A DNA stretch of 64,000 nucleotides. Source: Marinobacter mangrovi. Its GTDB lineage: Bacteria > Pseudomonadota > Gammaproteobacteria > Pseudomonadales > Oleiphilaceae. Shown here in pieces: positions 17,569-45,542 of this stretch. Each line of letters starts with the position of its first letter. Positions within the stretch are counted from its first letter, which is position 1. The stretch is from assembly GCF_016798325.1 (NCBI RefSeq), contig NZ_JAERVO010000003.1:455608-519607 (forward strand). Direction: 5' to 3'. Under the pieces are notes generated by a model. The model did not search any database. It was given only the letters and a program-made list of their open reading frames with translations, and was not told the origin of the DNA. Both the position numbers and the translations under genes were made by a program.

Positions 17569-17797
17569 TGAAAAGAAAAGCCGGTTCGGAGGCACGCGAA
17601 CAAACTTGTATACCTATGCGTGGAGCGTAAGGGCTCAGATTCATGTTCAGGACGAGGGGCGTGATGTGGTGTTCCCGGCACCGCCACCAGACGATCCGTT
17701 GACATATGATAAGGCGGATCCAGAGCATACAACGCCGGATTTTTCGGAAACGGGTAAAGATTTCTGGTTCGATGAAAAGGTGGTTCAACGTGGGTAG
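17569..17797 (+). pseudogene. Remnant of the last about 75 codons of an effector gene homologous to 1998..6062
   Basis: 'EKKSRFGGTRTNLYTYAWSVRAQIHVQDEGRDVVFPAPPPDDPLTYDKADPEHTTPDFSETGKDFWFDEKVVQRG*' against the effector C-terminus; no upstream effector body. Confidence 0.7.
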
Positions 17798-18848
17798 TGT
17801 TTTCGAGAAGCAGAACCAAGCCGCTGTTCATTACGCGGAAACAGCATACCGGCCAGAGTGCATACCAGAGCAACCTTCACAGCGGGAGGATTATAACCAA
17901 TCAGCTTTGGGGCGCGTCGGCACTGCACGTTTGCCATGGGGATACACCGAAACAGTTATCCCTTTGACCATTTTTTCTCAAGCTTCACCGGGTTTACTTC
18001 GTCGACATGAAAAACATGGAGATCCGTTAGAAGGGACTGGTTACCAGGGAAAAATGGATCATGAATGCTTTCGATATGCGCCTTTGGCCAAGCGATTTCA
18101 GATATTAAATTTAACTGAAATCATTTCCAGATTTATTATTATTATTTTTGGTCCTCTAATGATTTTGGGTTTTATTATAGGATCATTTCTTACATCCAAA
18201 AGTGATTACTGGCATAGTCTAATATACGATGACTGGCGCTCAAATGCTTTAATGTTTGGAGTTCCAATTGGAGTTTGGGTTAGTTCTTGGGTTTTAGGTA
18301 AGCTGTGTTTAGGCTGGTTTTTGAAGGCAGGAAAAGGCCCTCTATGGGAGCTGAAACGCCGCACCGGCATGGTCACCGTGTGGTCCTACCCTCCAAAATT
18401 TCCATTTATTCCCCGTGGCAAGCCTGAGGTTTTTAAAGCCCCCTTTGTGGAATTTGACGCCTGGGTCAGTACCCGTGGTGACCGGGCCGGGATTCTGAAC
18501 CGTCTCCATTTGTTCCATCGTTACAGCAAGTGTGAAGCAGGTGTGGGGGCTGTCGGTGGAGCGACCAGTATGCCTGAGCCCTGCTACGCCCTTTGGGACT
18601 TCGTCCAGAACTACATGGACGTGACCCAGCCCTTGCCCGATATCCCGATCTGGGAAGCCTGCCGCCACCTGGACCCGGTCACGGCCGAGCACGACCGGCA
18701 AACCAACCGCCCGGAACGCTATTGGCGCGATATGGACGACGACACGTTCAAGGCCTGCGAGCGCGAGATGCACTATCGAGTCCACGCACTGCGCACCCTG
18801 AGCCGGCCGAACATCATGGCTGAGAAGACGGTTTACGCGAGCTACTAG
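17772..18848 (+). CDS. A1-type candidate immunity protein (orphan copy), start overlapping the effector-tail remnant
   Basis: Same overlap geometry as 6037..7110; 'YAETAYRPECIP', two TM helices, 'FVEFDAWVSTRGDRAGILNRLHLFHRYS', 'YALWDFVQNYMDVTQPLPDIPIWEACRHLDPVTAEHDRQTNRPERYWRDMDDDTFKACE'. Confidence 0.55.
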   Translation: MKRWFNVGSVFEKQNQAAVHYAETAYRPECIPEQPSQREDYNQSALGRVGTARLPWGYTETVIPLTIFSQASPGLLRRHEKHGDPLEGTGYQGKMDHECFRYAPLAKRFQILNLTEIISRFIIIIFGPLMILGFIIGSFLTSKSDYWHSLIYDDWRSNALMFGVPIGVWVSSWVLGKLCLGWFLKAGKGPLWELKRRTGMVTVWSYPPKFPFIPRGKPEVFKAPFVEFDAWVSTRGDRAGILNRLHLFHRYSKCEAGVGAVGGATSMPEPCYALWDFVQNYMDVTQPLPDIPIWEACRHLDPVTAEHDRQTNRPERYWRDMDDDTFKACEREMHYRVHALRTLSRPNIMAEKTVYASY

Positions 18849-18940
18849 CTGGGGAGTCGTCGTTGTATAGTCGGAACGTTCATCAAGGAAATGGAACAAA
18901 CAACCACAGGGATTGAGAGGTGGTTTCCCCATTGCGTAGT

Positions 18941-19747
18941 CTAAGTTCGCTGCCGATCCTCTGCGATTGGGGCATGATCGCTGGCCTCCAGTGGAAGCTC
19001 CATCGGGACGCTCCACGTTCGGGCCAGCCTGTGCCTTCCAACCTGTCCCTCAAGTTCAAGCGACCAGCGAAATTCAAACATGTCGTTGGGAGGGAGGTCG
19101 GCAGGGACGTCAAAGCTGAAGAAGAATGCCTGCTTGCTCTGGTCGTTCTGGAGGCGGGTGCTGTAATCGGCACGCCAGTACTCGACATAATCCGTTCTTG
19201 AGCCAGAGGTGGTGTTGCGTTTGACGCCCTCGTAACAGATGAGCTTGAGTTTGATCGGCTGGTTCTTTGGGAGATCCCTCACGAATGCAATGCGACCAGA
19301 AAGTTTCTTTCCAATGACGGGGGCGGCTTCCAGTCTAAGTCGGGTAGCGCCGAACCGGTGCAAGCCCAGGCTGTTTCTGAGCGATTTCACAAGGAAAATA
19401 GAGCCGATAAAGGTGCCGAACCAAAGGTTGGGGTTTGTATATTCGCCCATCGAGAAGACATAGACGATCCCGGGCAATAACAGCAGTAGCAGCGAAACGA
19501 CGTAGTTGAAATCGGAAGACCTTGTCTGGGAGCTGAGCTCTCCTTCCCCCTGATAGAGGCTGTTGCCGTTCTCGTCTGGATCAAGTCGCTGCTTCAGGAA
19601 CGGTATTGGAATACTCCAAGAGTAAGATACAGAGCGATCAATGCGTCCACCAGGGGCGCCGTGGGAAACCATTCGGTAGCCGCTGGGCGCGTCTGCACCG
19701 TTTGTGTGGTCTGGTGAGTCATCGTTCTGAGCTGATTCTGGCATCAT
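18941..19747 (-). CDS. Hypothetical membrane protein
   Basis: 268-aa ORF with central hydrophobic segment 'VVSLLLLLLPGIVYVF'; no recognisable family. Confidence 0.4.
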   Translation of the reverse strand: MMPESAQNDDSPDHTNGADAPSGYRMVSHGAPGGRIDRSVSYSWSIPIPFLKQRLDPDENGNSLYQGEGELSSQTRSSDFNYVVSLLLLLLPGIVYVFSMGEYTNPNLWFGTFIGSIFLVKSLRNSLGLHRFGATRLRLEAAPVIGKKLSGRIAFVRDLPKNQPIKLKLICYEGVKRNTTSGSRTDYVEYWRADYSTRLQNDQSKQAFFFSFDVPADLPPNDMFEFRWSLELEGQVGRHRLARTWSVPMELPLEASDHAPIAEDRQRT

Positions 19748-19890
19748 TCCTTACCTTCGCTGGCAAGCTTGTATACACGAGCTATGAGGCTGTTTTAACT
19801 GAAAATTGAAGCGATTTCCTGATTTGAAAACCAGAGTGCGAAACGTTATAGCCACTGCAAAGGTCTTTCTTGCACCCAGGTTCGAGACGG

Positions 19891-20382
19891 CTACGACGGT
19901 TTCGTGGTTTCTGCTTCCGCCCCGGAGGGATCTTCGGTTTGAGGCGCTGTATCAGTCAGGGGGATACGATGTAGGATGAGGCCGCCATCGGGGCGCATCT
20001 CGCCGGCGAGGATGGCATCCGTTGCCGTATTCCCGTCTTCATCGCAGAGCACATAGTGCTCTTTGATGTGGTTTTCCACTTTTGATGGGCCGTCGGCACC
20101 GATGTGAGAGCTTATGAAGACAATCAGGAAGCCGACGGAGGTGATCGGGCCTGGATACAGAAGAATGAACTGGGAAAAGGTCGGTCCGGAATAGCTGACC
20201 CGTACCGAATCAGGACCGAGGAGTAGCGTCAGGCCGCCGATGGCGAGAACAATGTAGCCGATGGCCGCGATGACCGCTGAGGCGCTCTTCTGACTTTGAT
20301 ACGTCTTGACGACGTCGACCCGGTCTATTTCGTAGGGGCAGTCTGACGGTGTCAGCTGTTTGGAGGAGTAAGACATACGCAA
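19891..20382 (-). CDS. Hypothetical membrane protein
   Basis: 163 aa, two predicted TM helices; no family recognised. Confidence 0.4.
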   Translation of the reverse strand: MRMSYSSKQLTPSDCPYEIDRVDVVKTYQSQKSASAVIAAIGYIVLAIGGLTLLLGPDSVRVSYSGPTFSQFILLYPGPITSVGFLIVFISSHIGADGPSKVENHIKEHYVLCDEDGNTATDAILAGEMRPDGGLILHRIPLTDTAPQTEDPSGAEAETTKPS

Positions 20383-20542
20383 TCCTTGGCAGAGAAATCT
20401 TGGCGGCCCTTCCTGGGCGCATCTAGAGCGCGACAGTTTAGCGCTTGATGTATCGTCATGGAAGTCAGTTTAATGCCGCATTGACTTATGGCGGGTCGAT
20501 CAATAAATTGCCACCTGATTTCCAGATTGAACAGGGACGTTC

Positions 20543-21268
20543 ATGACACCTTCCAAGAATGAGCATTCAACGCTTGTTTCGACGTCGCGTCGGCAAAAAA
20601 GAGCCAGCCAACTCGCTCTGGTTTTGATGGGGGCGACGCCTTTTGTCATTTTCAATTGGGATCCGCTTTATTCAGAGTTCCGTGTATTACGCAGTGTAGC
20701 TGATTGCAGTGAACAAACGGATCTGAAGCCTGACGTGTGCCAGGCTTTGTGGGCAGAGGCACGAAGCCGGCATAAGGCCGTATCTCCTCAATACAAGAAG
20801 ATGGAAGCATGCGAGTCCGACTTTGGACACTTTGTCGATCGGAAGAGTTGCGACGGGAGTTGGTGCCCTGCAGACAGCTTTTCCGGATGTGAGTGGGACG
20901 GAGAGGGCGTGGCGCACCCAGAAATGGCTGGCCTGCTGGTCGATACCGCGGTTCTGAAGCGTTTGGCTGATGGGGAAACACTGACCCTGGCCCAAGTGAG
21001 TGAGGATGACTTGCAGCCGGTGTACGGGATGTCCGACGAGGCACTGGAGTCGTCGTCGGATTCCGGTAATGGTCATTATTATTCCTCATACGGCTGGCAC
21101 TTCTTTACGGCAGGCGGCGGCTATGTGGGGCGGTCGAATGTTAAGGGGGCCTTGCGCCGGTCCACGTCAATGGTCGCCGGGCGCACAACGCCTCTTTCCG
21201 GGTTGTCGGCGCAGCGGGGCGGCTTTGGGGCAACAGCGCGAACCTACATGGCCAGGGCCACGGGATAA
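20543..21268 (+). CDS. DUF1190-family protein (YgiB/YjfM-like)
   Basis: Cys pattern 'ADCS...CQALW...ACESDFG...C' and C-terminal 'RGGFGATART' as in E. coli YgiB/YjfM. Confidence 0.6.
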   Translation: MTPSKNEHSTLVSTSRRQKRASQLALVLMGATPFVIFNWDPLYSEFRVLRSVADCSEQTDLKPDVCQALWAEARSRHKAVSPQYKKMEACESDFGHFVDRKSCDGSWCPADSFSGCEWDGEGVAHPEMAGLLVDTAVLKRLADGETLTLAQVSEDDLQPVYGMSDEALESSSDSGNGHYYSSYGWHFFTAGGGYVGRSNVKGALRRSTSMVAGRTTPLSGLSAQRGGFGATARTYMARATG

Positions 21269-21600
21269 TGGGGTGTCTCTTTGATCGATTGACCGCGTTG
21301 ATGTCATCCGGCGACATGTTGGTTGAAAGCGGCGGTATGGCGGGTATGTATGCGTTTCGCAAGGCCTTCTCTGAACTTCCGTTGCCCCCTGTCGCTCAAG
21401 GTATTGCCAAGCTTCGCTGGCAGCGCTACGAAGATAAAGAGCGAGCACCGATCACAACGCTTTTGCTGGAACATTTCTCGAACCCCAGTGGCCACCACGC
21501 TATCGTTGCACTGCCCGCTGGGGCGCCGGAACGGCAATATCTCGATGAAACACTCCTGAAGGACGCGTCCATGGAGGTTCGCTTTGTCAGACTCAAATGA
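21268..21600 (+). CDS. Hypothetical protein
   Basis: 110-aa ORF, start overlaps previous stop (TGATG... arrangement); no family recognised. Confidence 0.35.
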   Translation: MGCLFDRLTALMSSGDMLVESGGMAGMYAFRKAFSELPLPPVAQGIAKLRWQRYEDKERAPITTLLLEHFSNPSGHHAIVALPAGAPERQYLDETLLKDASMEVRFVRLK

Positions 21601-22471
21601 AGGAGGCAGCCTCATGGATGGGAAGGCATCCGGTTCGGGGTCGAAGGCGCGGTCGGCACGCCAGGTTCCGCCCGACAATTTGATCATCGTCGATCAGCGT
21701 CCGGTCGAGATAAAGGCGGAAGATCAACGGGCAAACGTCCGGGATATTGCGAAAGAGCAAGCGAAAAAGATGGCGTACTTTGCCCATGCGCCGGAAACTG
21801 GCGAATATTGGTACCTGGGAAAGTGCTTCGCAAGCTACTATTGGATACTGCTGGCCTGTCCCATCATTGCCTCGATGATCATCGCGTTCAATTACCTGTT
21901 GTGGGCCTCCATACTGCCTGTCGGTAACCTGTTGTTGTCCCTCGCCGTCATGGCCGTCATCTGGTTCGGGCTCGTTCTATGGACCCGATGGACAGGTATC
22001 TACGCCCATGTCTATAGGTTTAATGTCAGGGAGCGAACACTCTGGCACCTCAACTCCAGTACGTATTCTGCCTTGCCTAGCCAGGAAGAGGTGGGAGCCA
22101 TGACGGGAACCGAAATCAACGACGACGTGACCGCCAACTCCCTTGATCATCATTCATCGATTGGCACGGCGGTGCTGTCCGTCATGACGGAAGAGGATCT
22201 GGCTGCGAAGGCTTCGCGGTGGAAACCAAGAACGTTAAAGCAGCAGTTTACAGATCTTTTTGGCGACGGCGGCGGTTGGTGGGCTATTGGCTTCCTTCAG
22301 CTTTTTCTTTTGCCGGGCCTGTTCGCAACGGGTCAATTCGTGGGGTATTTGCTCGCCAACCTGTCCCTGCTGGTGGGTTGGGGCCTCTCACGCCTGGTGG
22401 CTTACTGGTTGGAAACCGGGTTGGCGTCGGCGCTTTCCCGGCTTCCGGAAACCGAAGGGGTCACCCGATAA
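21584..22471 (+). CDS. Hypothetical polytopic membrane protein
   Basis: 295 aa with at least 4 hydrophobic helices; no family recognised. Confidence 0.4.
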   Translation: MSDSNEGGSLMDGKASGSGSKARSARQVPPDNLIIVDQRPVEIKAEDQRANVRDIAKEQAKKMAYFAHAPETGEYWYLGKCFASYYWILLACPIIASMIIAFNYLLWASILPVGNLLLSLAVMAVIWFGLVLWTRWTGIYAHVYRFNVRERTLWHLNSSTYSALPSQEEVGAMTGTEINDDVTANSLDHHSSIGTAVLSVMTEEDLAAKASRWKPRTLKQQFTDLFGDGGGWWAIGFLQLFLLPGLFATGQFVGYLLANLSLLVGWGLSRLVAYWLETGLASALSRLPETEGVTR

Positions 22472-23612
22472 TACAGTGTGGCACAAAGCGTGAACTGTCG
22501 CGGGTAATGGCTGTATCGTCCTCGCGGATGCTCATACCAACGGCGTCCCTGCCAACGAGCCAGCTTCCAATCAGCGTAAAATGGCCGGCAAACTGTGTGG
22601 GTGGGTGCCACGCTTGAAAAATGTGCGGTCCCGAATCGTAGGGGCCCTCGACGGAAGTCTCCACGCCCTGGGGTGTTTCCACCTGTATGTTGGCACCTTC
22701 CCGGGAAAAGAAGGGCTTTCTCACCCATCGTGTTGCTTGCTGGCGGGTGCCCATCTCGTCTGTGGTGAACCAGGCGGGCAGGAGATTCGGATGCCCGCGA
22801 TGGCGCTCCCATAACAAGGGAAGGATGCCTTTATTGGAGAGAATCGCTTTCCAGGGCGGCTCTATGAACTGGGTGCCCGCCGTGGCGATCGATGTCGCGA
22901 ATGCCTCTTCCCAGATCCATTCCCAAGGGTACAGCTTGAACAGCTGATCGATCGGTTTGTCCTCCAAGTCAACGAAGCGTCCGGCACCGGACAGGCCGAT
23001 ATCGTCCATATAGAGCTCCACCGGCGAAAGCCCGGCCTGGGTCGCCAAATCGGCCAGGTACGAAATGGTTCCCCGGTCTTCGTCATGTCCGCGTGTGCAG
23101 GCAATGTGCAAGGGCTTTCCCGCGACTCCAAGATAAGCTAACCGCTCAATCAGGGCTTCCTGCAGGCTGTTGAATTGATCCGCTTCAGGTGGCAACTGCC
23201 CCAGGGATTTACACTCTTCCAGCCAGATCCACTGGAAAAAGCCGGTTTCATAAAGCGATGTTGGCGTGTCGGCGTTGTATTCGTAGAGCTTGGCTGGATT
23301 AACGCCGTCATAGGCCAGGTCGATCCGGCCGTAGAGACTGGGTTCGCCATCGCGCCAGCTGGTTCGGATCAGATCCCAGTGGGCTTCCGGCAGGGCAAGC
23401 TTTCTCATGAGCCTATCGCTTTTGACGACCTCATCGACCAGTTCCAGGCACATGCCATGAATCTCGGCGGTTGGGTCTTCGATATCCCGTTCAATCTGCT
23501 GCAGGGTGAAGCGGTAGCAGGCGGATTCGTCCCAATAGGGTTCGCCGTCTATCGTATGGAAATGGAATCCGAGCTCCTTGGCCCGTGAACACCAATTATG
23601 GCGAGGTTGCAT
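22461..23612 (-). CDS. Glutathionylspermidine-synthase-like ATP-grasp protein (YgiC/YjfC family)
   Basis: 'ELGFHFHTIDGEPYWDESACYRFTLQQIE', 'YEYNADTPTSLYE', 'LWERHRGHPNLLPAWF' match the E. coli YgiC family. Start placed at ATG 23612 ('MQPRHNW'); the track ORF extends to 23843. Confidence 0.75.
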   Translation of the reverse strand: MQPRHNWCSRAKELGFHFHTIDGEPYWDESACYRFTLQQIERDIEDPTAEIHGMCLELVDEVVKSDRLMRKLALPEAHWDLIRTSWRDGEPSLYGRIDLAYDGVNPAKLYEYNADTPTSLYETGFFQWIWLEECKSLGQLPPEADQFNSLQEALIERLAYLGVAGKPLHIACTRGHDEDRGTISYLADLATQAGLSPVELYMDDIGLSGAGRFVDLEDKPIDQLFKLYPWEWIWEEAFATSIATAGTQFIEPPWKAILSNKGILPLLWERHRGHPNLLPAWFTTDEMGTRQQATRWVRKPFFSREGANIQVETPQGVETSVEGPYDSGPHIFQAWHPPTQFAGHFTLIGSWLVGRDAVGMSIREDDTAITRDSSRFVPHCIIG

Positions 23613-23997
23613 CCTGTTGCGTTGCACGATGTTCCTTTCCTGGAGGGCTTCAACGAGGTTGTCCGATCCGGTAATGCCGGACGATTGCAAAACTTTACCG
23701 GTTCTGCGGCTGAACTGAAATACGGACGACACGGACTGTATAAAATGGACGCGTCTCGATAGACTATCCGCCTTCAATGGCAGGGTTCCAGGCTTCTTCA
23801 GGGAGAGGATGCATGATGAACGACAGCAGGCGGCTCTGGGCATACGCTCGGAATCACCTATGCCGCTCTGGCTTACCCGTCTTCCGGTTTTTCCATACCC
23901 AGTTGTTCGCCTGTCCTATGATGTTTGAATCCAGATGTTTGGAAATCAATGCTCGTCGGGCTCCGGTGCCCGGCCCGTTCAGTTCAGGTGAGGTGGT

Positions 23998-24438
23998 ATG
24001 TCATTCTTCATCCAGCGACCTATGAGTCTCGCTGTTAATCCGTTTGCCGCGGCATTCCTTGCCATTCTCATTCCAACGGGCCTGTCTGCCCAAGAGCAGG
24101 ACCCCTGCAAGGTCACCAATGGAGGCGCCATGGCCGGCGCTATGTGTGTGAGCAAGAAAATCGAAGTGGCGGACAGGGAGCTCAATCGAACTTACCAGGC
24201 GGCGTTGAAGCGAATAAGGGCCGAAGAGGCGTTCGAGCAGGCACACGTTTCCGGCGTGGAATACGAAGAGCCATTTCGTGCGGCCCAGCGAGCCTGGCTT
24301 AAATTCAAGGACGCCGAATGCGAATTTCGCGGGGGTATAACGACCTCGTCCCCCTGGCAAACCGTGCAGATCGAGCAATGTAAGCTCGAGATGATCCTTG
24401 AGCGAATCGAATACTTCAAAACCGTGTTCGTTGGTTGA
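23998..24438 (+). CDS. DUF1311/LprI-family (lysozyme-inhibitor-like) periplasmic protein
   Basis: Signal peptide; 'LNRTYQAALKRI...AQRAWLKFKDAECEF' as in DUF1311. Confidence 0.55.
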   Translation: MSFFIQRPMSLAVNPFAAAFLAILIPTGLSAQEQDPCKVTNGGAMAGAMCVSKKIEVADRELNRTYQAALKRIRAEEAFEQAHVSGVEYEEPFRAAQRAWLKFKDAECEFRGGITTSSPWQTVQIEQCKLEMILERIEYFKTVFVG

Positions 24439-24572
24439 GCTGATCTGTGGGCGCCGGTTGTTGGGAGGGCACACGGACCGGCGACGGGTGTTCAATGGAA
24501 CAGGAAAGGCCGGTCGCCGTGGGCCAGTCTCTCCCGAGCTAGATGCTCAGCGATTCTGCGCGCTTCTCGCTT

Positions 24573-28415: not shown

Positions 28416-28621
28416 AGAAACAGACTATCCTTGTCAAATTGAGCCGTCTTTTCGGTTACCGGGAATGTGTCCCCATTGCGCGGGCGTGATGCCGACCTGG
28501 CTGTCCATTCGTGATGGCGTCGTCCGTTCAAAACCATGGCCGTGCTGTCAGGGACAGCAACCTCGGATCGCGATCAGGTGTTGGGGAATTTACCCGAAGA
28601 TCCTGAGCCCGGGAAGACGGG

Positions 28622-28954
28622 TTAATCCCCATGATCCGGAAGGAAGGTTTTGGCAAACGTGCCCAATTCTTTGGAAACTCTCTCGCGAATCGCCGCGCGG
28701 TCTTCCGGAGACAGGTCGTACCTTTCTGCCAAAGCGACGAAATCGTCTTCATGCAGCGTAACGGTCAGGCGGGGTCTGGCGCGTTTTTTGCGGTAGGACA
28801 GGCCAAGCACCTTGCGAACCATGTCCGACGGGTTGAGGTCCTGCATGACGGCAGCAACCCTGAAGGCCCGCTGGATATCGCTGGAAAGGTCAAAGGCCAT
28901 TTGGACAGCCCTGACGGCTTTATATTCACGCGACCAGTCGGATTGCTTCTTCAT
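28622..28954 (-). CDS. Hypothetical small protein
   Basis: 110-aa ORF; no family recognised. Confidence 0.3.
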   Translation of the reverse strand: MKKQSDWSREYKAVRAVQMAFDLSSDIQRAFRVAAVMQDLNPSDMVRKVLGLSYRKKRARPRLTVTLHEDDFVALAERYDLSPEDRAAIRERVSKELGTFAKTFLPDHGD

Positions 28955-38292: not shown

Positions 38293-38331
38293 ATTCGTCC
38301 CTCAGAGATCAGGGGCGACAATTAACAAGGA

Positions 38332-38535
38332 GTGTTTGTGAGCACATTGGAAGTGTTTCTCGAGAGCCGGGAGAAAGATGGCGTTTGGCTATTCAATCGC
38401 CGCTGGCGGGATTGCCCGTTCTACGGGATCTATGATGACGAACGCGGCGACGACGTATGGCAGTCGTCTTCGGATTTTTATCTGCAAAATGCCAGTTCTT
38501 GGGTGACTCTCAGCCGTTGCGATGCTGACGACTGA
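38332..38535 (+). CDS. Small hypothetical ORF
   Basis: 67-aa ORF right after the giant gene; weak support. Confidence 0.2.
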   Translation: MFVSTLEVFLESREKDGVWLFNRRWRDCPFYGIYDDERGDDVWQSSSDFYLQNASSWVTLSRCDADD

Positions 38536-38640
38536 AGGGTTGCTGCGTAGCATCCGGATATAGCGGAAGTGTTTTGATGAGCAGGCCCGTGCCTTTTGAA
38601 CACCATGGAATGGAAAAATAACCCAAAGGAGTGTGGCTGA

Positions 38641-39354
38641 ATGTACTTGGAGTACGTGCCGGCTGAGCAACAGTATGATTATTATGCGAAAGAGTGTTAT
38701 GCAAACTCAATGTCTGGGTCGAGTTTTCATGTTTTCCAGAAAAGCGTGCGGCTGGTTGATGATAAAGTCATTGCGGCCTCTTTCATTAAAGGCATAACGG
38801 TACTTCGACTTAAAGATATAAAATTCATCGAGTTGAGAGTCGACCATTCTGACGCTTCGGTCTGCTGTAATATATGGGGGCATTCCGGAACAGGTTATAT
38901 CACGCTTTGTGATTACAGCCTCGTTAATGGGTTAAATGCCGTCGCGGAGGTCAAAAGAAAGGAGTTCGTATCGTTCATCGAGACTTTGCTTGGACGTTTG
39001 AAGGAATTGGATCTGGCACAGCAAGTGGAATGCAAATATGTTGGACCAGAAACGATAAAAATTGAACTGATCGAGATGTTTTGGTCTTTTCTCTTTGCGC
39101 CAATCGTTATGACTATTCTTATGACGCTCATGATAGTGGTAGGCGTTCCAAGTTCTTCGACCGTAATGACGACAATATGCGTTGTACTCGTTTTCCCGCT
39201 CATGTTTTTGGGATGGTATATCAGCCCCCGCGTTGTGGATTCTCTGTGTGAAACGTGTGTGATTACTTATCCGGTGCTTCCGGAACGGCTATTCGAACTG
39301 GCCGACGGCGTCATCACCAGAGATTTATCGAAAGAAGACGAGGATAAAAAGTGA
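38641..39354 (+). CDS. Hypothetical membrane protein (low-GC gene)
   Basis: 237 aa, two C-terminal TM helices, AT-rich codon usage unlike neighbours. Confidence 0.4.
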   Translation: MYLEYVPAEQQYDYYAKECYANSMSGSSFHVFQKSVRLVDDKVIAASFIKGITVLRLKDIKFIELRVDHSDASVCCNIWGHSGTGYITLCDYSLVNGLNAVAEVKRKEFVSFIETLLGRLKELDLAQQVECKYVGPETIKIELIEMFWSFLFAPIVMTILMTLMIVVGVPSSSTVMTTICVVLVFPLMFLGWYISPRVVDSLCETCVITYPVLPERLFELADGVITRDLSKEDEDKK

Positions 39355-40586
39355 GGGGTTGCGCCTAGTCGGCGAGTCGATACGGCGCTGGCCCCTGTCG
39401 TTCGGTGGATGATGTGCGGCTTTTGGGCTGATTTTCGAAGTTTCATATTTAGCGAGAGATTATATCTCAAACTATTCATGAGAGTTCATCGGGTGGCGTG
39501 CTCACCCTGTTGTTATCGCTGCTCATAGGCATTTCTTTGTTTCCGTTGTGCGCGATGGACAAGGATTAACGGTAGGCTCTGCGTCTGACCCGAACCTTGC
39601 CATTCCGTTCTGTTCGTCACCAAGCTGGCTCTTCGTAGAATGAAGGTTCGAATCAAAGCGCGGTATTAAAGTTCAGCTTGATCTCCAGAGAATGCAAGCA
39701 TGACACCCATGCTGGGAAAAGCGTCGTCGTCCGACTCATCGAAAGAGGTGTTTGGGGCGTCGGCCTTGCAGCTGGAAACCGCCAAGCGACGGGATAACCG
39801 TTGGTACTTGGTGGGGCTCAGAGCCGCCAGCGAAGATCGTCTTGGGTCGGATAACGAGAATCCGGGACGACTCGTTAAGAGGCCTTTTGCCCCGAGCTAG
39901 ACCCAATTTGGAGCCGATGCGAGGTGATGTCTCTGTTGTAGGCGAGCCAGTGACTGACTTGCCAGCTGCGCCCACTGTGATTTCACGGTTCCATTCCGTA
40001 TAGTCACGGCTGTCTGAAAGCCCGTGTGGTATTATGGCAAGCGCGTAAGCATACAGCGCCTGGCGGAATTCTGCGTTCTTGGTCTCTTCGTCGGCATGCG
40101 AGATCCGCGACTGGTCCAGCGACACCGTCCTGCGGACCGAAACGTCTTCGTCCGCCTCCAATGTCTGTTCTTCAATCTGTTCGTACCCTTAGGCGGAGAT
40201 CACTCTTCTGCGAGTCGATATTTGCGGACGCTAACGAGTCGGCCATCGGGAAAAATGGGCGCTACGATGGCGCCAGTCAGGGATTCCAACTGATCAAACG
40301 TGATGGCCTCTATATCCCGGTACAGATGTCCGTCAACGAAACCGGAGAGACCTACGCGGCAATCAGGTGTCCAAGCGGGCGTTTTTCAGTCGCTGGGTGA
40401 GTAAGAGTAAAAGAGTTCCCACAATCGTGGTCGGGCACCGATGCCGTATCGGTTGGCCGAGCGATCGCTACATCGTTTAGGCAGCGAAATCGGAAAAAGC
40501 TGCAAAACGCGTACTTGATGCGGGAGCCAGTTGGCGTAAGGGCGGCCTGAGCTTTTGCCACTTGCAGACGATTTCAGTTTTGTAAT

Positions 40587-41291
40587 GTGTGTTGTATCAT
40601 TTGTCCCGCAGTCATCCTGCAGGAGGCAGGGTGTGGAAACCATGGAAAGGATTCGATGTTATTACCCCCCGAAATTTGCTTCGCGGCTATGTCCCTCGAA
40701 GTGCTCGAAGACCTGTCTTACGATGTAGTGCGTAAAAATCCAACGGCAACGGTGACGCCGATAAACGCTCGAGGGCGTCCAGCCGACTGGTCGTCTGGAA
40801 AGGTTTTTGCGTTTAAGGTCCAGGAGGATGGCCAGAACAAACCCTTCATGATCGTTACGACCAAGTCCGCGATGCTCATGCCGGAAAGAGCCTCTCCCGA
40901 CGTGTTTGACGTATCGGTCCGTATAGTGCGTGCCCGTGTCAACTACACGGAGCCTCAGCCCGAAATCGCCGTGGGCTTGTTGGCGACGGCCGGTTTTGCA
41001 GCTTTGTTTTACTACACGCTAATTCATCAAATCGTCCCACGTGGGCCTTTGATTACCTGCATCGTGCTGGTGGCGGTGTGCTTGCTCTTGGCTGGGCTGA
41101 TTCTGCTTGTGATGCGGTTGTATAAGGCTCCAGAGCGCGGCCGCAGTAAGTTGGGTGTAGTCTTGCTGCTCCCGGGCCTGTTTGCGGTTATGCCAATAGG
41201 CCTCCTTAACCTCCCGTTGCTCCATTACATCCGTCGCAAGCACGGTGAGCAATTGTTGCCCACTCGGGTTGTTTCGACGGAGATCAACTGA
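40587..41291 (+). CDS. Hypothetical membrane protein
   Basis: 234 aa, TM helices in C-terminal half; start uncertain. Confidence 0.35.
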   Translation: MCCIICPAVILQEAGCGNHGKDSMLLPPEICFAAMSLEVLEDLSYDVVRKNPTATVTPINARGRPADWSSGKVFAFKVQEDGQNKPFMIVTTKSAMLMPERASPDVFDVSVRIVRARVNYTEPQPEIAVGLLATAGFAALFYYTLIHQIVPRGPLITCIVLVAVCLLLAGLILLVMRLYKAPERGRSKLGVVLLLPGLFAVMPIGLLNLPLLHYIRRKHGEQLLPTRVVSTEIN

Positions 41292-41529
41292 GAGCGATCC
41301 TAAACCAGACCTGGCAGTCGCGCTGTGACTCGGTGTGATGAATCCGGCCGAGCACGGCAGCGCACTCCGGAATAGTCTGCAATGTGTAGACAGGGCGCAT
41401 CAAAAGGATCAGCTGTCCCGTGTGCCCGAGACATTAAATGTGATTGATTCCAGAAATCATAACCGGGAATTTGCTGCCCCAACTCTGATGAGGCTTGGGT
41501 TCAAGAGATAAGCCATCAAGGATGAAATA

Positions 41530-41868
41530 GTGAGTGACGAAACTAAAGCCATGTGTATGTCGTGCCAAGGTCCTAATCAGCTTTCCCAGGAAGATCTGGC
41601 GCAACTCGGTAAGTCCGAACCGATCGCCTGCGGTGAATGCGGCGCAATGGTAAAAATCAAGCCTGACCCGGATGGAGAGCGGAAGGCGATGTTGTCGGTT
41701 TTGACCTTGACCGCCGGAGCTTTGATCGTTTGCGTCGTGGCCTTGATCAATCTATTTGGTGATGCCGGTTTCCCGACTTACTTTGTGGCCATTCCATTCA
41801 TTTTGATTTCAACGCTTTTGGTGTCGATCCAGAGCGCTAATGTGATCAAACTGCAGCCCGTCGACTGA
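41530..41868 (+). CDS. Zinc-ribbon (CxxC...CxxC) membrane protein
   Basis: 'CMSCQG' and 'CGECG' pairs followed by two TM helices. Confidence 0.4.
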   Translation: MSDETKAMCMSCQGPNQLSQEDLAQLGKSEPIACGECGAMVKIKPDPDGERKAMLSVLTLTAGALIVCVVALINLFGDAGFPTYFVAIPFILISTLLVSIQSANVIKLQPVD

Positions 41869-42034
41869 GGTCACCGGCCTAAGAGGAGGGTGGCCCGCAT
41901 GTTTGGGACCTCAAGGAGAAACCATCAGTCTTTCAAACCTGCACCTTAATTCCCTTGATATCCGCTCAATTCTGGCCCTTTAAAACTTAACTTGACCTAG
42001 GATTTTTCATGTTCAAGTTTTTGCTTCTTTCAAG

Positions 42035-42217
42035 TTGTACTCGAAGGTTTATAAAGGCTGGCTTCTCCAAGGTGACAATAATACTGACTATGCTGTTTCC
42101 GCGGATGGCCAGTGGCTGGCAGGTCATAACGTAAAGGCTTGGGACCGTTCCCGCGAAGCGTATGTGGATCAAAAGGTTTCACACACGATGGACGATCTGG
42201 ATGTTGAGCAGCGGTAG
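42035..42217 (+). pseudogene. Remnant of the 3' end of an A2-cognate effector gene (tail '...SHTMDDLDVEQR*')
   Basis: The same tail 'MMDDLDVEQRQ' and the following about 170 nt recur at 9486-9660 upstream of the other A2/A3 paralogs. Confidence 0.45.
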
Positions 42218-42283
42218 TCGCGGCCTGTTTCTCTAGGACTTTGGGGGAACATTCAATTTCAAAGATGGTGGAGGAGCAGGGGG

Positions 42284-43309
42284 TTGACTGATCTTGAGAA
42301 GAGTGAACATAGCGGGGCTCCATACTCGGAAACGGCCTATCGCTCCGATGATATTCCCGTTCTGCCCACCGGTGGGCACCCCAAGTTGGATAAGGTATTT
42401 GAACGGCTCCCTTGGGGGAATTATCAAACACCGGTCGTTCCCAATACAGTAGAGACTCAACTTGCCTATGCCAGTCTTTTCAAAGATGAAAAGGACACTG
42501 AAGATGGGTTTCCGTGGGGTGAAGAAAAGATAGCCATTGGGAAAGGTTTTCTGAACGGGTTTCAGGCATTTTTGTACATTACGTATATGTGTGCTTGGTT
42601 GGCTTCGTTAGTTGCTTTGATACCGCTAACAATTAGCTTTTTCTCACTATTTTTACATGGATTCAGCGTCGCCAGCCTTTATAATATTCTATCCGCTTAT
42701 GGGGTTATGTATGCAATCATAGGGGGGCTTTTTTTCGGAGGAAAATACGGTCGCTTGATGTTGGCTTATCTTACCGAAAAACGCCAAAGAGCAAACCCAA
42801 CCGGCCTCTATCGCCGCGAAGGGTTGGTCCGCATAAAAACCCGAAAAGAGGTTTTTTCCGCACCCTTTATTGAGTTCGATGCGTATTGTGTCCATTCCCC
42901 TTCCGGTCGTGGTGGCCGTTATTACAACCTTGTCCTCCAGCATCGCTACAGCGACGAACAGCTCTGGATGAAGGGGATGGTGGCCGATGTGATGAATCGG
43001 CAAGACGTCTACGCGTACTGGGACATGGTCCAGCAGTTCATGGACGTGAGTCACCCTCTGCCGGACGTACCGGTCTTTGAGCCCTTCCGTCATCGCGATC
43101 CAGTGACCGCCGAAGAGGACGCCCGTACCGGGCGTGATCCATTCCATTGGCGCAAAATCACGCCGGAATCTTGGCGGGAGCATTACGAATCAAAATATCG
43201 AGCGCGGCTACACAATGCGAACTGGAATCGCCCCTGCATTATGGACGCTCGTATTGAAGGGCGCGGGATACCGATCAAGGATGAACCTCAGGGCCGCATG
43301 TTGGCTTAG
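42284..43309 (+). CDS. A2-type candidate immunity protein (intact copy)
   Basis: 341 aa; colinear with the pseudogene 8487..9485; 'FIEFDAYCVHSPSGRGGRYYNLVLQHRYS', 'YAYWDMVQQFMDVSHPLPDVPVFEPFRHRDPVT'. Confidence 0.55.
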   Translation: MTDLEKSEHSGAPYSETAYRSDDIPVLPTGGHPKLDKVFERLPWGNYQTPVVPNTVETQLAYASLFKDEKDTEDGFPWGEEKIAIGKGFLNGFQAFLYITYMCAWLASLVALIPLTISFFSLFLHGFSVASLYNILSAYGVMYAIIGGLFFGGKYGRLMLAYLTEKRQRANPTGLYRREGLVRIKTRKEVFSAPFIEFDAYCVHSPSGRGGRYYNLVLQHRYSDEQLWMKGMVADVMNRQDVYAYWDMVQQFMDVSHPLPDVPVFEPFRHRDPVTAEEDARTGRDPFHWRKITPESWREHYESKYRARLHNANWNRPCIMDARIEGRGIPIKDEPQGRMLA

Positions 43310-43333
43310 GAGCAAAAGGGCCTGTTCGGAAAC

Positions 43334-43540
43334 GTGGTCAGTCGGGAGATCGTGAAGTACTCGTGGAGCGCCCGTGTCCAGATCCGCATTGGCAAGAAGG
43401 ACGACCTGATGGTTTTCCCTGCGCCCTTGCCGGACTCTTCATTAACGTACGATAAAAACAATGAAGAACACACCAAGCCGGATTTCTCCGAAACGGACAG
43501 GGTTTTCTGGTTCGATGAAAAGGTGGTTCAACGTGGATAG
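43334..43540 (+). pseudogene. Remnant of the last about 68 codons of an effector gene (divergent homolog of the 1998..6062 tail)
   Basis: 'VKYSWSARVQIRIGKKDDLMVFPAPLPDSSLTYDKNNEEHTKPDFSETDRVFWFDEKVVQRG*'. Confidence 0.6.
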
Positions 43541-44588
43541 TGTTGTAGAAATGCCGAGGCAGACAACTGGTTATTATGCCGATACCGCCTATCGACCGGA
43601 TCGCATACCGGAGCAACCTCCCCAGCATGAGGACCACAACCAATCCGCGCTGGGGCGTTTTGGCACCGCGCGCTTGCCGTGGGGGCATACGGAACCGGTT
43701 GTACCGATTATTGTTTTCGCGAAGGCCCCCCCAAAACTACTGCGTTGGCATGAAGAGCAGGGGGATCCCCTCGAGGGCACTGGCTATCAGGGGCGGATGG
43801 ATCATGAGTGCTTTCGGTATGCACCGCTGGCTAGGCGTTTTCAGGTTTTAAATTTGTCCGAGATTTTTTCCAGATTAACGGTCCTTATTTTTGGCCCTTT
43901 GATGATATTGACGCTGATTATTGGATCGTTTATTTCGTCAGACAAGAATTACTGGCATAGCTTAATTGACGAGTGGCAATCCTTTGCCATGATGTTTGGA
44001 ATTCCAATCGGAATCTGGGTTGTTTCCCGGGTTTTGGGGAAGTTATTTTTAGGTTGGTTCTTGAAAGCAGGAAAAGGCCCTCTATGGGAGCTGAACCGCC
44101 GCACCGGCATGGTCACCGTATGGACCTACCCTCCAAAATTCCCCTTCATTCCGCGCGGCAAGCCAGAGGTCTTCAAGGTGCCATTTGTGGAGTTTGACGC
44201 CTGGGTCAGTACCCGTGGTGACCGGGCCGGGATCCTGAACCGTCTCCATCTGTTCCATCGTTACAGCAAGTGCGATGCGGGCGTTGGTGCCATCGGTGGT
44301 AACACCAGCATGCCCGAACCCTGCTATGCCCTTTGGGACTTCGTACAAAACTACATGGACGTGACCCAGCCCTTGCCCGATATCCCGATCTGGGAAGCCC
44401 ACCGCCACCTGGACCCGGTCACGGCCGAGCACGACCGGCAAACCAACCGCCCGGAACGCTACTGGCGCGATATGGACGACGACACCTTCAAGGCCTGTGA
44501 GCGCGAGATGCACTATCGAGTCCACGCACTGCGCATCCTGAGCCGGCCGAACATTATGGCCGAGAAGACGGTTTACGCGAGCTACTAG
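43515..44588 (+). CDS. A1-type candidate immunity protein (orphan copy)
   Basis: Overlaps the remnant as in the other A1 cassettes; the 3' half is nearly identical in nucleotide sequence to 18330-18848 and 7146-7424. Confidence 0.55.
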   Translation: MKRWFNVDSVVEMPRQTTGYYADTAYRPDRIPEQPPQHEDHNQSALGRFGTARLPWGHTEPVVPIIVFAKAPPKLLRWHEEQGDPLEGTGYQGRMDHECFRYAPLARRFQVLNLSEIFSRLTVLIFGPLMILTLIIGSFISSDKNYWHSLIDEWQSFAMMFGIPIGIWVVSRVLGKLFLGWFLKAGKGPLWELNRRTGMVTVWTYPPKFPFIPRGKPEVFKVPFVEFDAWVSTRGDRAGILNRLHLFHRYSKCDAGVGAIGGNTSMPEPCYALWDFVQNYMDVTQPLPDIPIWEAHRHLDPVTAEHDRQTNRPERYWRDMDDDTFKACEREMHYRVHALRILSRPNIMAEKTVYASY

Positions 44589-44639
44589 CCGGTACACGGT
44601 TCATCGTTGAGTGGTTTCCCAGGGAAGGGAAGCTGAAAT

Positions 44640-44675
44640 GCAAGCAAACCCTTAATTCACCACAAGGACTGTGAA
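44640..44675 (+). repeat. Ligase leader repeat (copy 4)
   Basis: Same core; the wider match 44585-44675 equals 7425-7511. Confidence 0.75.
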
Positions 44676-45542
44676 ATGCCCACCCCGCTGTACCAGCGCT
44701 GGCTGCCATTCCTGTGCAGCCTCGCCCTGCTATTCCCCGCGTCTGAACTCCACGCCGAAAAACCACAACTCACCCTGGCCCAGGTCTACGAAAAGGGCGA
44801 TGCCCTCAAAGGCTACTGGGTCAGCGAAAAACTCGACGGTGTGCGGGCCTATTGGGACGGTGAGCACCTGATTTCGCGTCAGGGCCATGCGTTTCATCCG
44901 CCGACCTGGTTTACCCGGGATTTTCCGGAGGTACCTCTGGATGGCGAATTGTGGATGGGACGCGGGACGTTTTCCGAGCTGTCCGGGGTGGTGCGCAAGC
45001 TCGAGCCGGTGGACAGCGAGTGGCGGCAGGTGCATTACGAGATTTTTGATCTGCCCGGGCGTGATCGCCCGTTTTCGGAGCGGGTGGCTCGCATGCGGTC
45101 GATGCTCAAGCCTTCGCCGTCACCCTACCTCGTTATGATCGAACAGACGCCGGCAACCACGCGGGAGGCGTTGATGGCGCGTCTGGACGAGGTGGTTGAT
45201 GAGGGCGGTGAAGGGCTGATGCTACATCGGGGCGGCGCCCTGTATGAAGCCGGTCGCTCGGACGATTTGCTGAAGGTGAAGCGGTATCAGGATGCCGAGG
45301 CCACGGTGGTGGGCTATTCGCCGGGGCAGGGGAAATACGAGGGCATGCTGGGGGCGCTGGTGGTGGAGCGTTCCGATGGCCGCCGGTTCAAGCTGGGTAG
45401 CGGGTTCAGTGATGAGCAGCGTGCGGATCCTCCGGCGATCGGGGCGACGGTGACCTACAAATATTATGGGCTGACGTCGACCGGGTTGCCTCGGTTCGCG
45501 AGTTTTATGCGGGTTCGGGATGAGGAGCCGGTGGCGGAATAG
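44676..45542 (+). CDS. Periplasmic ATP-dependent DNA ligase, LigE-like (copy 4, intact, 288 aa)
   Basis: Near-identical to copy 1 up to 'MRVRDEEPVAE*'; signal peptide, KxDG motif. Confidence 0.75.
   Translation: MPTPLYQRWLPFLCSLALLFPASELHAEKPQLTLAQVYEKGDALKGYWVSEKLDGVRAYWDGEHLISRQGHAFHPPTWFTRDFPEVPLDGELWMGRGTFSELSGVVRKLEPVDSEWRQVHYEIFDLPGRDRPFSERVARMRSMLKPSPSPYLVMIEQTPATTREALMARLDEVVDEGGEGLMLHRGGALYEAGRSDDLLKVKRYQDAEATVVGYSPGQGKYEGMLGALVVERSDGRRFKLGSGFSDEQRADPPAIGATVTYKYYGLTSTGLPRFASFMRVRDEEPVAE

Follow-up and report, generated by a model that had tools for sequence, protein, structure and literature searches.

A predicted orphan T6SS effector-immunity array with ligase repeats on both sides of a 23-kb stretch in Marinobacter mangrovi, possibly assembled by one-sided recombination

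Comparable systems are the orphan-immunity arrays of Vibrio cholerae, in which effector stubs lying upstream of orphan immunity genes were described as a hallmark (PMC5361080). One-sided recombination is a known process, and the locus analysed here is a system of a known kind. It was found in Marinobacter mangrovi, a species with a single genome on record, a draft assembly in which the source contig measures 715 kb. The window, meaning the whole 64,000-nt stretch that was analysed, opens inside vgrG at the end of a T6SS cluster, and its left-hand array comprises the following features:

9..1409, plus strand: C-terminal part of VgrG at the end of the main T6SS cluster, truncated by the left edge of the window (Pfam Phage_GPD, Phage_base_V, Gp5_trimer_C)
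1422..1985, plus strand: DUF4123 T6SS adaptor/chaperone (Pfam DUF4123, E 1.4e-12)
1998..6062, plus strand: resident T6SS effector eff_a, 1354 aa (sub-threshold matches to VasX_N, weak with E 2.4e-4, and to the NCBIfam T6SS effector family BTH_I2691, E 5.8e-15)
5971..7110, plus strand: A1a, its cognate immunity gene (351-aa form from ~6055), 80-84% aa identity to the A1 genes that M. bohaiensis and JSM 1782161 carry behind their orthologous effectors
7150..7424, plus strand: 3' remnant of an A1c-type immunity gene, 92 codons, left end of repeat copy 1 (92-93% aa to the C-termini of A1b and A1c)
7512..8435, plus strand: ligase copy 1, LigE type, 307 aa (Pfam DNA_ligase_A_M and DNA_ligase_OB_2; 96.2% to copy 2)
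8487..9485, plus strand: X', pseudogene of an X-type orphan immunity gene in two ORFs (61% and 85% aa to X; 81% nt)
9589..10608, plus strand: Y, orphan immunity gene, 339 aa, a distant A1 relative (56% aa to a 336-aa array orphan of JSM 1782161; 28-30% to A1)
10646..10953, plus strand: ligase 5' fragment 2 (-59 to +249), ended by an IS21 remnant (92-93% to the other copies)
10954..12457, plus strand: IS21-family remnant, in which istA lacks its 5' part and has an in-frame stop and istB is intact (Pfam Mu-transpos_C_2, IstB_IS21)
12896..16907, plus strand: four tandem DUF6708 orphan immunity paralogues, period ~1016 nt (weak DUF6708 matches; mutual identity 55-76% aa)
17014..17415, plus strand: ligase 5' fragment 3 (-59 to +343), 95.3% to copy 1 and 93.0% to copy 2
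17416..17530, plus strand: 3' remnant of a Y-type immunity gene (98% nt to 10511-10625; 31 aa 100% identical to the Y C-terminus)
17564..17794, plus strand: 3' remnant of an eff_a-like effector, 77 codons (tblastn, 91% aa to eff_a residues 1278-1354 and 82% to M. bohaiensis)
17706..18848, plus strand: A1b, orphan immunity gene, left copy of repeat pair 1 (80% aa to A1c, 56% to A1a)

The VgrG shares 92% aa identity with that of strain NFXS9, which comes after tssM and PAAR, and the resident effector shares 87.5% with the M. bohaiensis effector in the same position. A1a has two hydrophobic segments, and the A1c-type remnant is 97.1% identical in nucleotides to the 3' end of the NFXS9 A1 gene. 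In JSM 1782161, both Y-like and DUF6708 genes are present, the DUF6708 gene coming after a VasX_N effector, and an A1 orphan lies between a newer module and the ligase.

The first-pass annotation had described orphan effector and immunity cassettes on both sides of genes foreign to the T6SS, with some 23 kb splitting the array in two, and both points hold: the gap between the cassette groups is 18849-42186, or 23.3 kb. This stretch is composite, consisting of 9.8 kb found in this strain only, a genus-conserved block of 9.8 kb, and 3.8 kb of decayed remnants and small ORFs:

18849..28623: strain-specific accessory stretch with two unknown genes, a yjfM-like DUF1190 gene, a yjfC-like GSP synthase gene, LprI and a 1280-aa ankyrin protein (Pfam)
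28624..38432: core block with a 110-aa gene, PspA, DUF2170, a membrane protein, flotillin/YqiK and a 1745-aa DUF3686/AAA ATPase (92.9% nt to M. halodurans)
38433..40765: decayed variable region with remnants of three genes that M. halodurans keeps between ATPase and ligase (tblastn)
40766..42186, plus strand: small hydrophobic ORFs with 2-4 hydrophobic segments (no family match; absent from M. halodurans)

The accessory stretch had no match in any of the 11 related loci, and the next-best homologue of its yjfM is 41% identical. The core block is 75% identical in nucleotides to three other Marinobacter loci and is present too in M. nauticus, M. mobilis and 1Y8. The 90% cluster of its giant ATPase has members only from M. 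mangrovi and M. halodurans, the one hint as to whether the sister strains have the block. The three remnants keep the M. halodurans order and correspond to the N-terminus of a 583-aa protein (38338-38499), the C-terminus of a NAPRTase_N protein (40027-40218, minus strand) and the C-terminus of an NrtR-like protein (40369-40515), all by tblastn; moreover, 40426-40765 is 79% identical to the NrtR 3' end and intergenic DNA of M. halodurans. The earlier description of the whole interval as a chromosomal block consequently fits 28624-38432, which is conserved in relatives, but not the strain-specific, decayed and small-ORF portions. Beyond it lies the right-hand group:

42187..43309, plus strand: X, orphan immunity gene, 341 aa, with upstream inter-cassette sequence (ORF at 42284-43309; 62% aa to the immunity gene that comes first behind the effector in M. 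mobilis)
43310..43537, plus strand: 3' remnant of effector eff_c, 76 codons (98.7% aa to the M. halodurans effector C-terminus, 97.4% to NFXS9)
43461..44588, plus strand: A1c, orphan immunity gene (83-89% aa to M. halodurans A1 genes)
44676..45542, plus strand: ligase copy 2, 288 aa, with its native 3' end, followed by nfi (NCBIfam PRK09125, 381 bits, cut-off 200)

Judged from their homologies, the left and right cassettes are a predicted orphan T6SS effector-immunity array, the orphans matching cognate pairs elsewhere. For example, A1c is the partner of eff_c in sister strains, with eff_c-A1c pairs in NFXS9, the Logan strains and M. halodurans, and it shares a 90% cluster with the A1 genes that precede ligases in NFXS9 and R17. 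Effector stubs of 76-77 codons lie directly upstream of A1b and A1c (tblastn).

Self-blastn of the window revealed only direct, same-strand repeats, inverted repeats of at least 100 nt being absent throughout. Two pairs had been proposed as near-identical direct repeats, and the direct orientation stood for both. The second (7146-8435 and 44300-45542) was confirmed, since 7152-8373 and 44316-45539 align over 1224 nt at 96.2% identity (E = 0), with a single gap, 47 differing columns and longest exact runs of 116, 107, 98, 95 and 88 nt; in its repeat unit, the 3'-terminal ~270 nt of an A1-family membrane immunity gene are followed, after a spacer of 87 nt, by the gene for a LigE-type periplasmic DNA ligase. 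For the first (17569-18848 and 43334-44588), the alignment of 17722-18852 with 43465-44592 gave 81.0% over 1134 nt, with a longest exact run of 60 nt: identity starts at 63-77% for some 600 nt, rises to 83-90% for a further 300 nt and reaches 96% in the final ~250 nt, so that near-identity survives in this last portion only. The "remnant" parts (~17564-17705 and 43310-43460) gave no DNA alignment (41-48%) and encode the C-termini of two different effectors. By its identity profile against A1c, A1b is a mosaic. Further members of the repeat system are the ligase fragments at 10646-10953 and 17014-17415 (92-95% to both full copies) and, by blastn, the pairs 8507-9448 and 42331-43272 (81%) and 9491-9655 and 42187-42350 (94%).

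Collinearity with M. halodurans, NFXS9 and the Logan strains extends from ligase copy 2 across nfi and further on. Each of the three extra ligase pieces has the same upstream end as this native copy, ~59 nt before the ATG; their 3' ends differ, the lengths being 921 nt, 402 nt and, for the piece later truncated by IS21, at least 308 nt. The pieces adjoin three different immunity types: A1c-type, Y and DUF6708. In copy 1 the native stop is gone, which yields a 19-aa extension, and the homology to copy 2 stops at 8373, as read at the 3' junction. The junction of fragment 2 with the istA interior was also read in the sequence; as an IS21-associated deletion rather than a primary junction, this right end carries no junction information.

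As the source is a draft and the related M. halodurans assembly breaks exactly in A1 repeats (on a 5-kb contig), a mis-join within a 270-1200-nt repeat might have produced the layout, in which case the cassette groups would not truly be linked through the block. Such an artefact is very improbable: the A1b/accessory junction (18848/18849) and that between the variable region and X lie in unique sequence, the repeats differ by 4-19%, enough for assemblers to tell them apart, and the adjacencies of T6SS array with core block and of core block with ligase are independently present in other species.

In the sister strain NFXS9 and two Logan assemblies, T6SS, effector, A1, ligase and nfi are contiguous. 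Their homology to the window begins exactly at 43308, at the eff_c stub, and identity to the right of it reaches 95.2% in NFXS9 and 96.95% in Logan SRR11534417 over 11.3 kb. M. nauticus and M. mobilis carry the conserved block to the right of the T6SS end, and M. halodurans carries it to the left of ligase-nfi. None of the relatives differs in gene orientation. An inversion, suggested at first as a possible cause of the split, is ruled out by this constant orientation and by the direct orientation of all repeats. No integrase, tRNA or attC-like repeat was found in the window, and scans for boundary repeats, covering the surroundings of the left boundary and of the core-block boundaries as well as the variable region on the right, detected none.

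The two ligase copies (dS 0.115) are as diverged as ligase alleles between different strains (94.6-95.9% identity), which speaks against the earlier label of near-identity and means that they did not arise by a recent in-genome duplication. Flank genes of M. mangrovi and the Logan sister strain show dS of 0.00-0.06, the distance between the copies being 2-4 times that. Under a duplication within the genome, ectopic recombination or unequal crossing-over would have moved a copy of the A1c 3' end and ligase from the right locus into the left array or in the other direction; further internal duplications and deletions, together with partial gene conversion, would then have reshaped the array, all without foreign DNA. 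Copy 1 is indeed marginally closer to copy 2 than to the ligases of other strains (95.3-95.5%), reaching 97.5% in the +344 to +625 segment, the sequence at -34 to -19 is common to all four copies and missing from M. halodurans, and the DUF6708 genes show that tandem duplication happens in the array. Nevertheless, this origin is quite unlikely: the different immunity neighbours of the left pieces imply that they are not serial copies of one unit, and a dS above that of the Logan sister genome would place the duplication before that split. Moreover, the three pieces on the left have the NFXS9/Logan allele at sites +34 to +43 and copy 2 has that of M. halodurans, a thin argument drawn from one short patch of 5 linked sites (7 by +69).

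On this anatomy and these homologies, layouts and alleles, we favour, with confidence only just above even, an ancestral block, with the cassettes and ligase pieces brought in from contiguous-type strains by one-sided recombination. The opposite polarity, an array once contiguous and later split by insertion, is the reading of the first-pass annotation; it is possible but less favoured. Here a contiguous NFXS9-like array would have come first and the ~23-kb segment, comprising the accessory genes, the core block and the decayed NAPRT/NrtR region, would have entered between A1b and X, perhaps by one-sided recombination anchored in an A1-type gene, from a donor with the block beside its T6SS end. 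The closest relatives have contiguous arrays whose homology to the window starts exactly at the eff_c stub, excision of 18849-42186 would leave a coherent array ending in an intact ligase, and the identity break near 18300 in A1b could be the left crossover. PspA and DUF2170 show dS of only 0.02-0.06 against M. halodurans, nearly all neighbouring genes showing 0.2-0.6; this points to frequent recombination between species and to recent import of at least that patch, and therefore the block could have been imported. Parsimony does not separate the two polarities, as an ancestral block and a regained block both take two steps on the tree (M. halodurans,(NFXS9,(Logan, M. mangrovi))). An insertion is nonetheless unlikely. 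It must recreate two independent old adjacencies at once, that of T6SS end and core block known from M. nauticus and M. mobilis, and that of core block, NAPRT/NrtR and ligase known from M. halodurans; decay has gone much further in the remnants between ATPase and X (58-63% aa) than in the block (92.9% nt), which speaks for long residence; the large block genes, with dS of 0.31-0.37, are not recent M. halodurans imports; and the +34 to +69 patch of copy 2 is of M. halodurans type rather than the allele expected of a contiguous-type recipient.

With an ancestral block, the inherited order would have been the T6SS cluster end, a variable stretch with the conserved PspA-flotillin-ATPase block, and ligase-nfi. 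DNA from contiguous-type strains may have entered repeatedly, pairing through the conserved vgrG/adaptor side, with the opposite end joined illegitimately, i.e. by homology-facilitated illegitimate recombination of the "sequential displacement" type. Each event on the left would have placed a new effector-immunity module beside vgrG, shifting older immunity genes downstream as orphans, and would have carried along a 5' piece of the donor ligase, which could account for the three extra pieces and the effector 3' stubs. The right-hand group may reflect a mirror-image event anchored in ligase-nfi, which would have brought the series X, eff_c stub and A1c immediately in front of the native ligase; a donor with this exact X-stub-A1c-ligase array was not found.

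The direct repeats, with exact runs of up to 116 nt, are adequate RecA-type substrates, in agreement with the earlier proposal that recombination between them could delete the block. Such homologous recombination could loop out 25-37 kb and regenerate the contiguous layout of sister strains; the predicted deletion-type layout is present in NFXS9 and the Logan strains. In its two effector 3' remnants and two 5' ligase fragments, the M. mangrovi array resembles the "sequential displacement" orphan-immunity arrays of Vibrio cholerae.

The vgrG-adaptor-effector-immunity module at the left end of the window represents the tail of the main T6SS cluster and not an isolated island, since the VgrG of the sister strain NFXS9, which is 92% identical to that of the window, comes after tssM and a PAAR gene. 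It is followed by orphan immunity genes that fall into a left group (1-18848, module included) and a right group, the latter at the native DNA ligase gene. The features are, from left to right:

9-1409, VgrG, the first gene of the module, cut by the left edge of the window
1422-1985, DUF4123 adaptor
1998-6062, resident effector (1354 aa) with weak VasX_N and BTH_I2691-family signals
5971-7110, A1a, immunity gene of the resident effector; the array begins directly after it
between A1a and ligase copy 1, the last 92 codons of an A1c-type gene
7512-8435, ligase copy 1, full length, with the native stop lost and 19 extra codons read
downstream of copy 1, a split X-type pseudogene (X'), an intact Y gene and ligase fragment 2 (10646-10953)
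10954-12457, remnant of an IS21-family element with a 5'-truncated istA interrupted by an in-frame stop and an intact istB (11601-12365)
12896-16907, four tandem DUF6708-like genes, period of about 1016 nt, mutual amino acid identity 55-76%
17014-17415, ligase fragment 3
downstream of fragment 3, a Y-type gene reduced to its final 115 nt, an effector stub of 77 codons (17564-17794) and A1b
18849-28623, strain-specific stretch: two family-less ORFs, yjfM-like, yjfC-like, LprI (lysozyme-inhibitor-like) and a 1280-aa ankyrin-repeat protein
28624-38432, core block: 110-aa gene, PspA, DUF2170, membrane protein (Yip1-like), 646-aa flotillin/YqiK and 1745-aa DUF3686/DUF7902/AAA ATPase
38433-40765, decayed pieces of a 583-aa gene, NAPRTase_N and an NrtR-like gene
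40766-42186, only small hydrophobic ORFs
42187-45542 (through the ligase), right group: X, a 76-codon stub (43310-43537) of eff_c (the effector of the sister strains), A1c and ligase copy 2, whose native end is retained, followed by nfi

The resident effector matched VasX_N with 21.6 bits, under the Pfam cut-off of 27. The stub at 17564-17794 shares 91% amino acid identity with the C-terminus of this effector, and the eff_c stub of the right group shares 98.7% with the C-terminus of the M. halodurans effector. The four DUF6708-like genes are a local tandem duplication of a single immunity type within the left array; in the interval upstream of them (12458-12895) no effector stub could be assigned, since the VasX_N effector of JSM 1782161 had no tblastn match in the window. 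The A1, X and Y proteins are mutually distant relatives (28-36% amino acid identity), and DUF6708 forms a separate family. All of them have about 300-350 aa and hydrophobic segments near residues 75-175, which fits putative immunity proteins against membrane-targeting toxins; the orphan ORFs are intact except X', with a topology of two membrane segments. Immunity genes that neighbour an intact effector in other strains are homologous to A1c (the eff_c-A1 pair of NFXS9, the Logan strains and M. halodurans), X (M. mobilis), A1a (M. bohaiensis) and DUF6708 (JSM 1782161). With A1c as query, 679 matches were obtained at E ≤ 1e-5, those named belonging to Marinobacter, Stutzerimonas and Pseudomonas. 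The A1/X/Y proteins (about 350 aa, two-segment) had no match in Pfam or NCBIfam and are worth following up as a new putative immunity superfamily.

The first-pass annotation had described near-identical direct repeats on both sides of the non-T6SS genes. Self-comparison of the window recovered such repeats, all of them direct, in six pairs that link the left and right groups, with the core block inside every pair. The wording was apt for the strong pair, 7152-8373 versus 44316-45539, which is 96.2% identical over 1224 nt (47 columns differ; uninterrupted matches of 116, 107, 98, 95 and 88 nt), and overstated for the weaker one, 17722-18852 versus 43465-44592, which reaches 81% overall with a longest exact run of 60 nt, 63-77% identity over the first 600 nt and 96% only over the last 250 nt. 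The remnants described upstream of the weaker pair have no homology at the DNA level. Members beyond those first reported are the ligase 5' fragments at 10646-10953 and 17014-17415 (92-95%), X' paired with X (81%) and an inter-cassette segment of 165 nt (94%). The suggested inversion is excluded by orientation, as the repeats are direct and no long inverted repeats were found in the self-comparison. Another candidate, an inversion involving the PALP gene to the right, was rejected because the block-adjacent PALP genes of other Marinobacter are non-orthologous to that of the window, with no match covering half the protein.

The intervening stretch, described as a block of about 23 kb, does measure 23.3 kb; it is a composite of the conserved core, a strain-specific part, decayed gene pieces and small ORFs. 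The core block shares 92.9% nucleotide identity with M. halodurans and about 75% with three other Marinobacter genomes, recurs in M. nauticus, M. mobilis and strain 1Y8, and was found in every Marinobacter locus examined. No counterpart of 18849-28623 was found in related loci, the next-best yjfM homologue being 41% identical, and the G+C content of 18941-28415 (0.52-0.58) lies below that of the core genome (0.60-0.67). To the right of the core, the decayed pieces preserve the order seen in M. halodurans between the ATPase and the ligase. In a stretch of lower G+C, three ORFs (38641-39354, 40587-41291 and 41530-41868) presented 2-4 hydrophobic segments and no family match, and may be either further orphan immunity genes or spurious. 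Within the core, PspA and DUF2170 (29018-30286, compared with M. halodurans L027 7985-9253) had dS of 0.06 and 0.02, and nearly all their neighbours had 0.2-0.6 against the same species; this patch marks a recent interspecies recombination. No tRNA, integrase or flanking IS pair was found in the 23-kb stretch, nor repeats at the scanned left and core-block boundaries or in the right-hand variable region, and the only IS in the window is the IS21 remnant inside the left array. A mobile island or composite transposon was rejected on the lack of tRNA, integrase and boundary repeats and on the conservation of the central 9.8 kb across the genus.

M. mangrovi has one genome on record, and its layout was compared with those of relatives. 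Exact M. mangrovi RefSeq counterparts, on a 715-kb contig, exist for the yjfM-like protein, the giant ATPase and both ligases; look-ups of ligase copy 2 and PspA by exact protein sequence gave no record. In NFXS9, tssM-PAAR-VgrG-DUF4123-eff_c-A1-ligase-nfi are contiguous, with 95.2% identity to the window over the 11.3 kb to the right of 43308; the same contiguous order was observed in Logan SRR11534417 and SRR11534415 (96.95% and 94.9%, starting at 43308), so that eff_c-A1-ligase-nfi is uninterrupted in all three sister strains. The A1 genes and ligase of R17 have consecutive accession numbers, and M. bohaiensis and JSM 1782161 carry a VgrG cluster-A1-4HBT-ligase order, the latter with a newer VasX_N/DUF6708 module and with Y-like and A1 orphans ahead of the ligase. 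In M. nauticus and M. mobilis, a T6SS effector and A1/X immunity genes lie directly left of the core block, and three other Marinobacter loci have the ligase to the left of this block. M. halodurans presents the order core block-583 aa-NAPRT-NrtR-ligase-nfi with T6SS genes on neither side, its eff_c-A1-A1 cluster being located on a separate 5-kb contig (L025, SJDL01000078, 5067 bp). This contig carries the effector and then a tandem pair of A1c-like genes, with an effector stub ahead of the second, and ends within the A1 repeat, indicating that the M. halodurans assembly breaks at the same repeat family.

The layout of M. mangrovi unites two arrangements, on the left the adjacency of M. nauticus and M. 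mobilis and on the right that of M. halodurans. The contiguous layout occurs in NFXS9 and both Logan strains, and the idea that the array was once contiguous in M. mangrovi is the less favoured polarity. The comparison favours an inherited block, the contiguous form being a deletion derivative, because both adjacencies occur independently in other species, old remnants persist by the ligase and copy 2 carries a patch of the M. halodurans type. Under the competing view, a contiguous array regained the block by re-insertion, which takes an equal number of steps on the strain tree and is in keeping with the interspecies recombination evident at PspA and DUF2170 (dS 0.02-0.06) and with the mosaic structure of A1b. 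An A1 relic upstream of the M. halodurans ligase was also sought, since it would make the A1-ligase junction ancestral; none was found, and when the 100 nt upstream were aligned locally, 93 of 500 shuffles reached the observed score.

The ligase carries only adenylation and OB domains (Pfam DNA_ligase_A_M and DNA_ligase_OB_2) and scored 381 bits against NCBIfam PRK09125 (cut-off 200), which assigns it to the Lig E type. Its N-terminus, MPTPLYQRWLPxLxxLALLFPASELHA, appears leader-like on inspection, and the enzyme is predicted to be periplasmic. Like Lig E (PRK09125), the minimal ATP-dependent periplasmic ligase of proteobacteria, the protein has about 288 aa, consists of an adenylation and an OB domain, and bears a KLDG motif and a candidate hydrophobic leader at its N-terminus; the gene differs in being present as two full-length copies and two fragments, because it adjoins a recombination hotspot. 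When metagenomes were scanned with the ligase, no close relative emerged, and the best match was 57% identical. The three extra pieces share with the native copy a common upstream end about 59 nt before the ATG, follow three different immunity types and end at different 3' positions, namely +862 (copy 1), +249 (fragment 2, an IS-associated deletion fused directly to the istA interior at 10953/10954) and +343 (fragment 3). The NFXS9/Logan allele occupies sites +34 to +43 in all three left-hand pieces (copy 1, fragment 2 and fragment 3), and copy 2 has the M. halodurans allele there. Across the full gene, copies 1 and 2 share 96.2% identity; the Logan and NFXS9 alleles are 95.5% and 95.3% identical to copy 1, and 95.9% and 94.6% identical to copy 2, respectively. 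The dS between copies 1 and 2 is 0.115, compared with 0.00-0.06 for flank genes between M. mangrovi and Logan. Therefore, the left-hand pieces behave like alleles of other strains of the clade and not like fresh in-genome copies, a pattern that, with few sites and few genomes behind it, favours horizontal import of the cassettes.

A small stem-loop was observed 40-60 nt upstream of every ligase start (7448-7471, 10644-10661, 17003-17027 and 44612-44635) and in the relatives' loci L001 (about 9939-9963) and L026 (about 7505-7529), with stem sequences varying by copy and species; its single-sequence folding was no better than that of shuffles. Additionally, a Lig E-type ligase directly follows a T6SS effector-immunity module in several Marinobacter species (loci L026, L031, L061, L062 and L063), and in M. 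mobilis a 50-aa ligase-like relic (L033 4629-4781) follows the array. This recurrent adjacency might be functional.

These observations agree with the V. cholerae model (PMC5361080); the recombination steps themselves are inferred. An incoming module would pair via conserved upstream sequence, join illegitimately downstream and displace the resident effector, whose immunity gene and 3' stub would stay; donors with a cassette abutting the ligase would have given one ligase 5' piece per import. The right-hand orphans would derive from a mirror event anchored in ligase-nfi, with the crossover between -5 and +34 of copy 2. The differently truncated ligase piece of each imported cassette could then serve as an acquisition record, by which single events and their order are readable from one genome.

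The first-pass annotation also anticipated that recombination between the repeats would remove the intervening genes. In the 1.2-kb pair, it would delete 37.2 kb and leave VgrG-adaptor-effector-A1a-stub-ligase-nfi, a predicted product that is the architecture of the sister strains. Sister strains differ by whether a stretch of 25-37 kb separates the T6SS end from the ligase, a natural polymorphism for which the direct repeats could mediate a switch. A joint reading, in which the ligase-T6SS adjacency is functional and the ligase repeats act as a reversible presence/absence switch of this stretch, seems improbable. The Lig E gene would then be a fixed right-hand homology arm for exchanging effector-immunity modules from killed neighbours, and Lig E itself may help to process the incoming DNA; if so, RecA-mediated loop-out and re-acquisition would toggle the orphan immunity genes and the PspA-flotillin-ATPase membrane-stress block in the population.

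Among known systems, integron arrays and the recombinase-associated immunity islands of Bacteroidales share the accumulation of ordered, promoterless-looking small genes at one site, but here integrase, recombinase and attC-like border repeats are lacking and the junctions are irregular. No integrase or recombinase domain was found in any scanned ORF of the window and no repeated motif at the cassette borders, and an integron-like mechanism was rejected on these grounds and on the non-significance of the ligase-upstream stem-loop against shuffles. Auxiliary cluster 2 of V. cholerae comprises VgrG, VasW (DUF4123), VasX and TsiV2, and the window shares its order of VgrG, DUF4123 adaptor, large membrane-targeting effector and membrane immunity protein, as well as a VasX_N signal, also present in the JSM 1782161 effector; the differences are that the VasX_N match is under the cut-off and that the A1-family proteins fit no family in Pfam or NCBIfam. 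Rhs and CDI orphan toxin-immunity arrays, which arise by C-terminal displacement (Jackson 2009, Koskiniemi 2014, as cited in PMC5361080), likewise consist of successive displaced 3' toxin ends accompanied by their immunity genes, and direct repeats between main gene and orphans permit homologous recombination that deletes or amplifies the interval; in contrast, no Rhs/YD or CdiA protein is involved here, the effector being a separate cargo loaded via the DUF4123 adaptor. The closest likeness is to the T6SS orphan immunity arrays of V. cholerae, formed by sequential displacement of effector-immunity modules, for which homology-facilitated illegitimate recombination with an upstream anchor was proposed (Kirchberger et al. 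2017, PMC5361080). Both are placed at the 3' end of a vgrG-adaptor-effector-immunity cluster, keep 3' stubs of displaced effectors and contain orphans matching cognate immunity genes of other strains. Unlike in V. cholerae, 5' pieces of the next non-T6SS gene, the DNA ligase, came in on three occasions, orphans also occur at the native ligase beyond a 23-kb non-T6SS stretch, and the genus and the effector and immunity families are others. The array adds one more case to a known kind of T6SS immunity array, leaves the understanding of how such arrays form unchanged, and is unusual in its ligase scars and its split across a conserved block.
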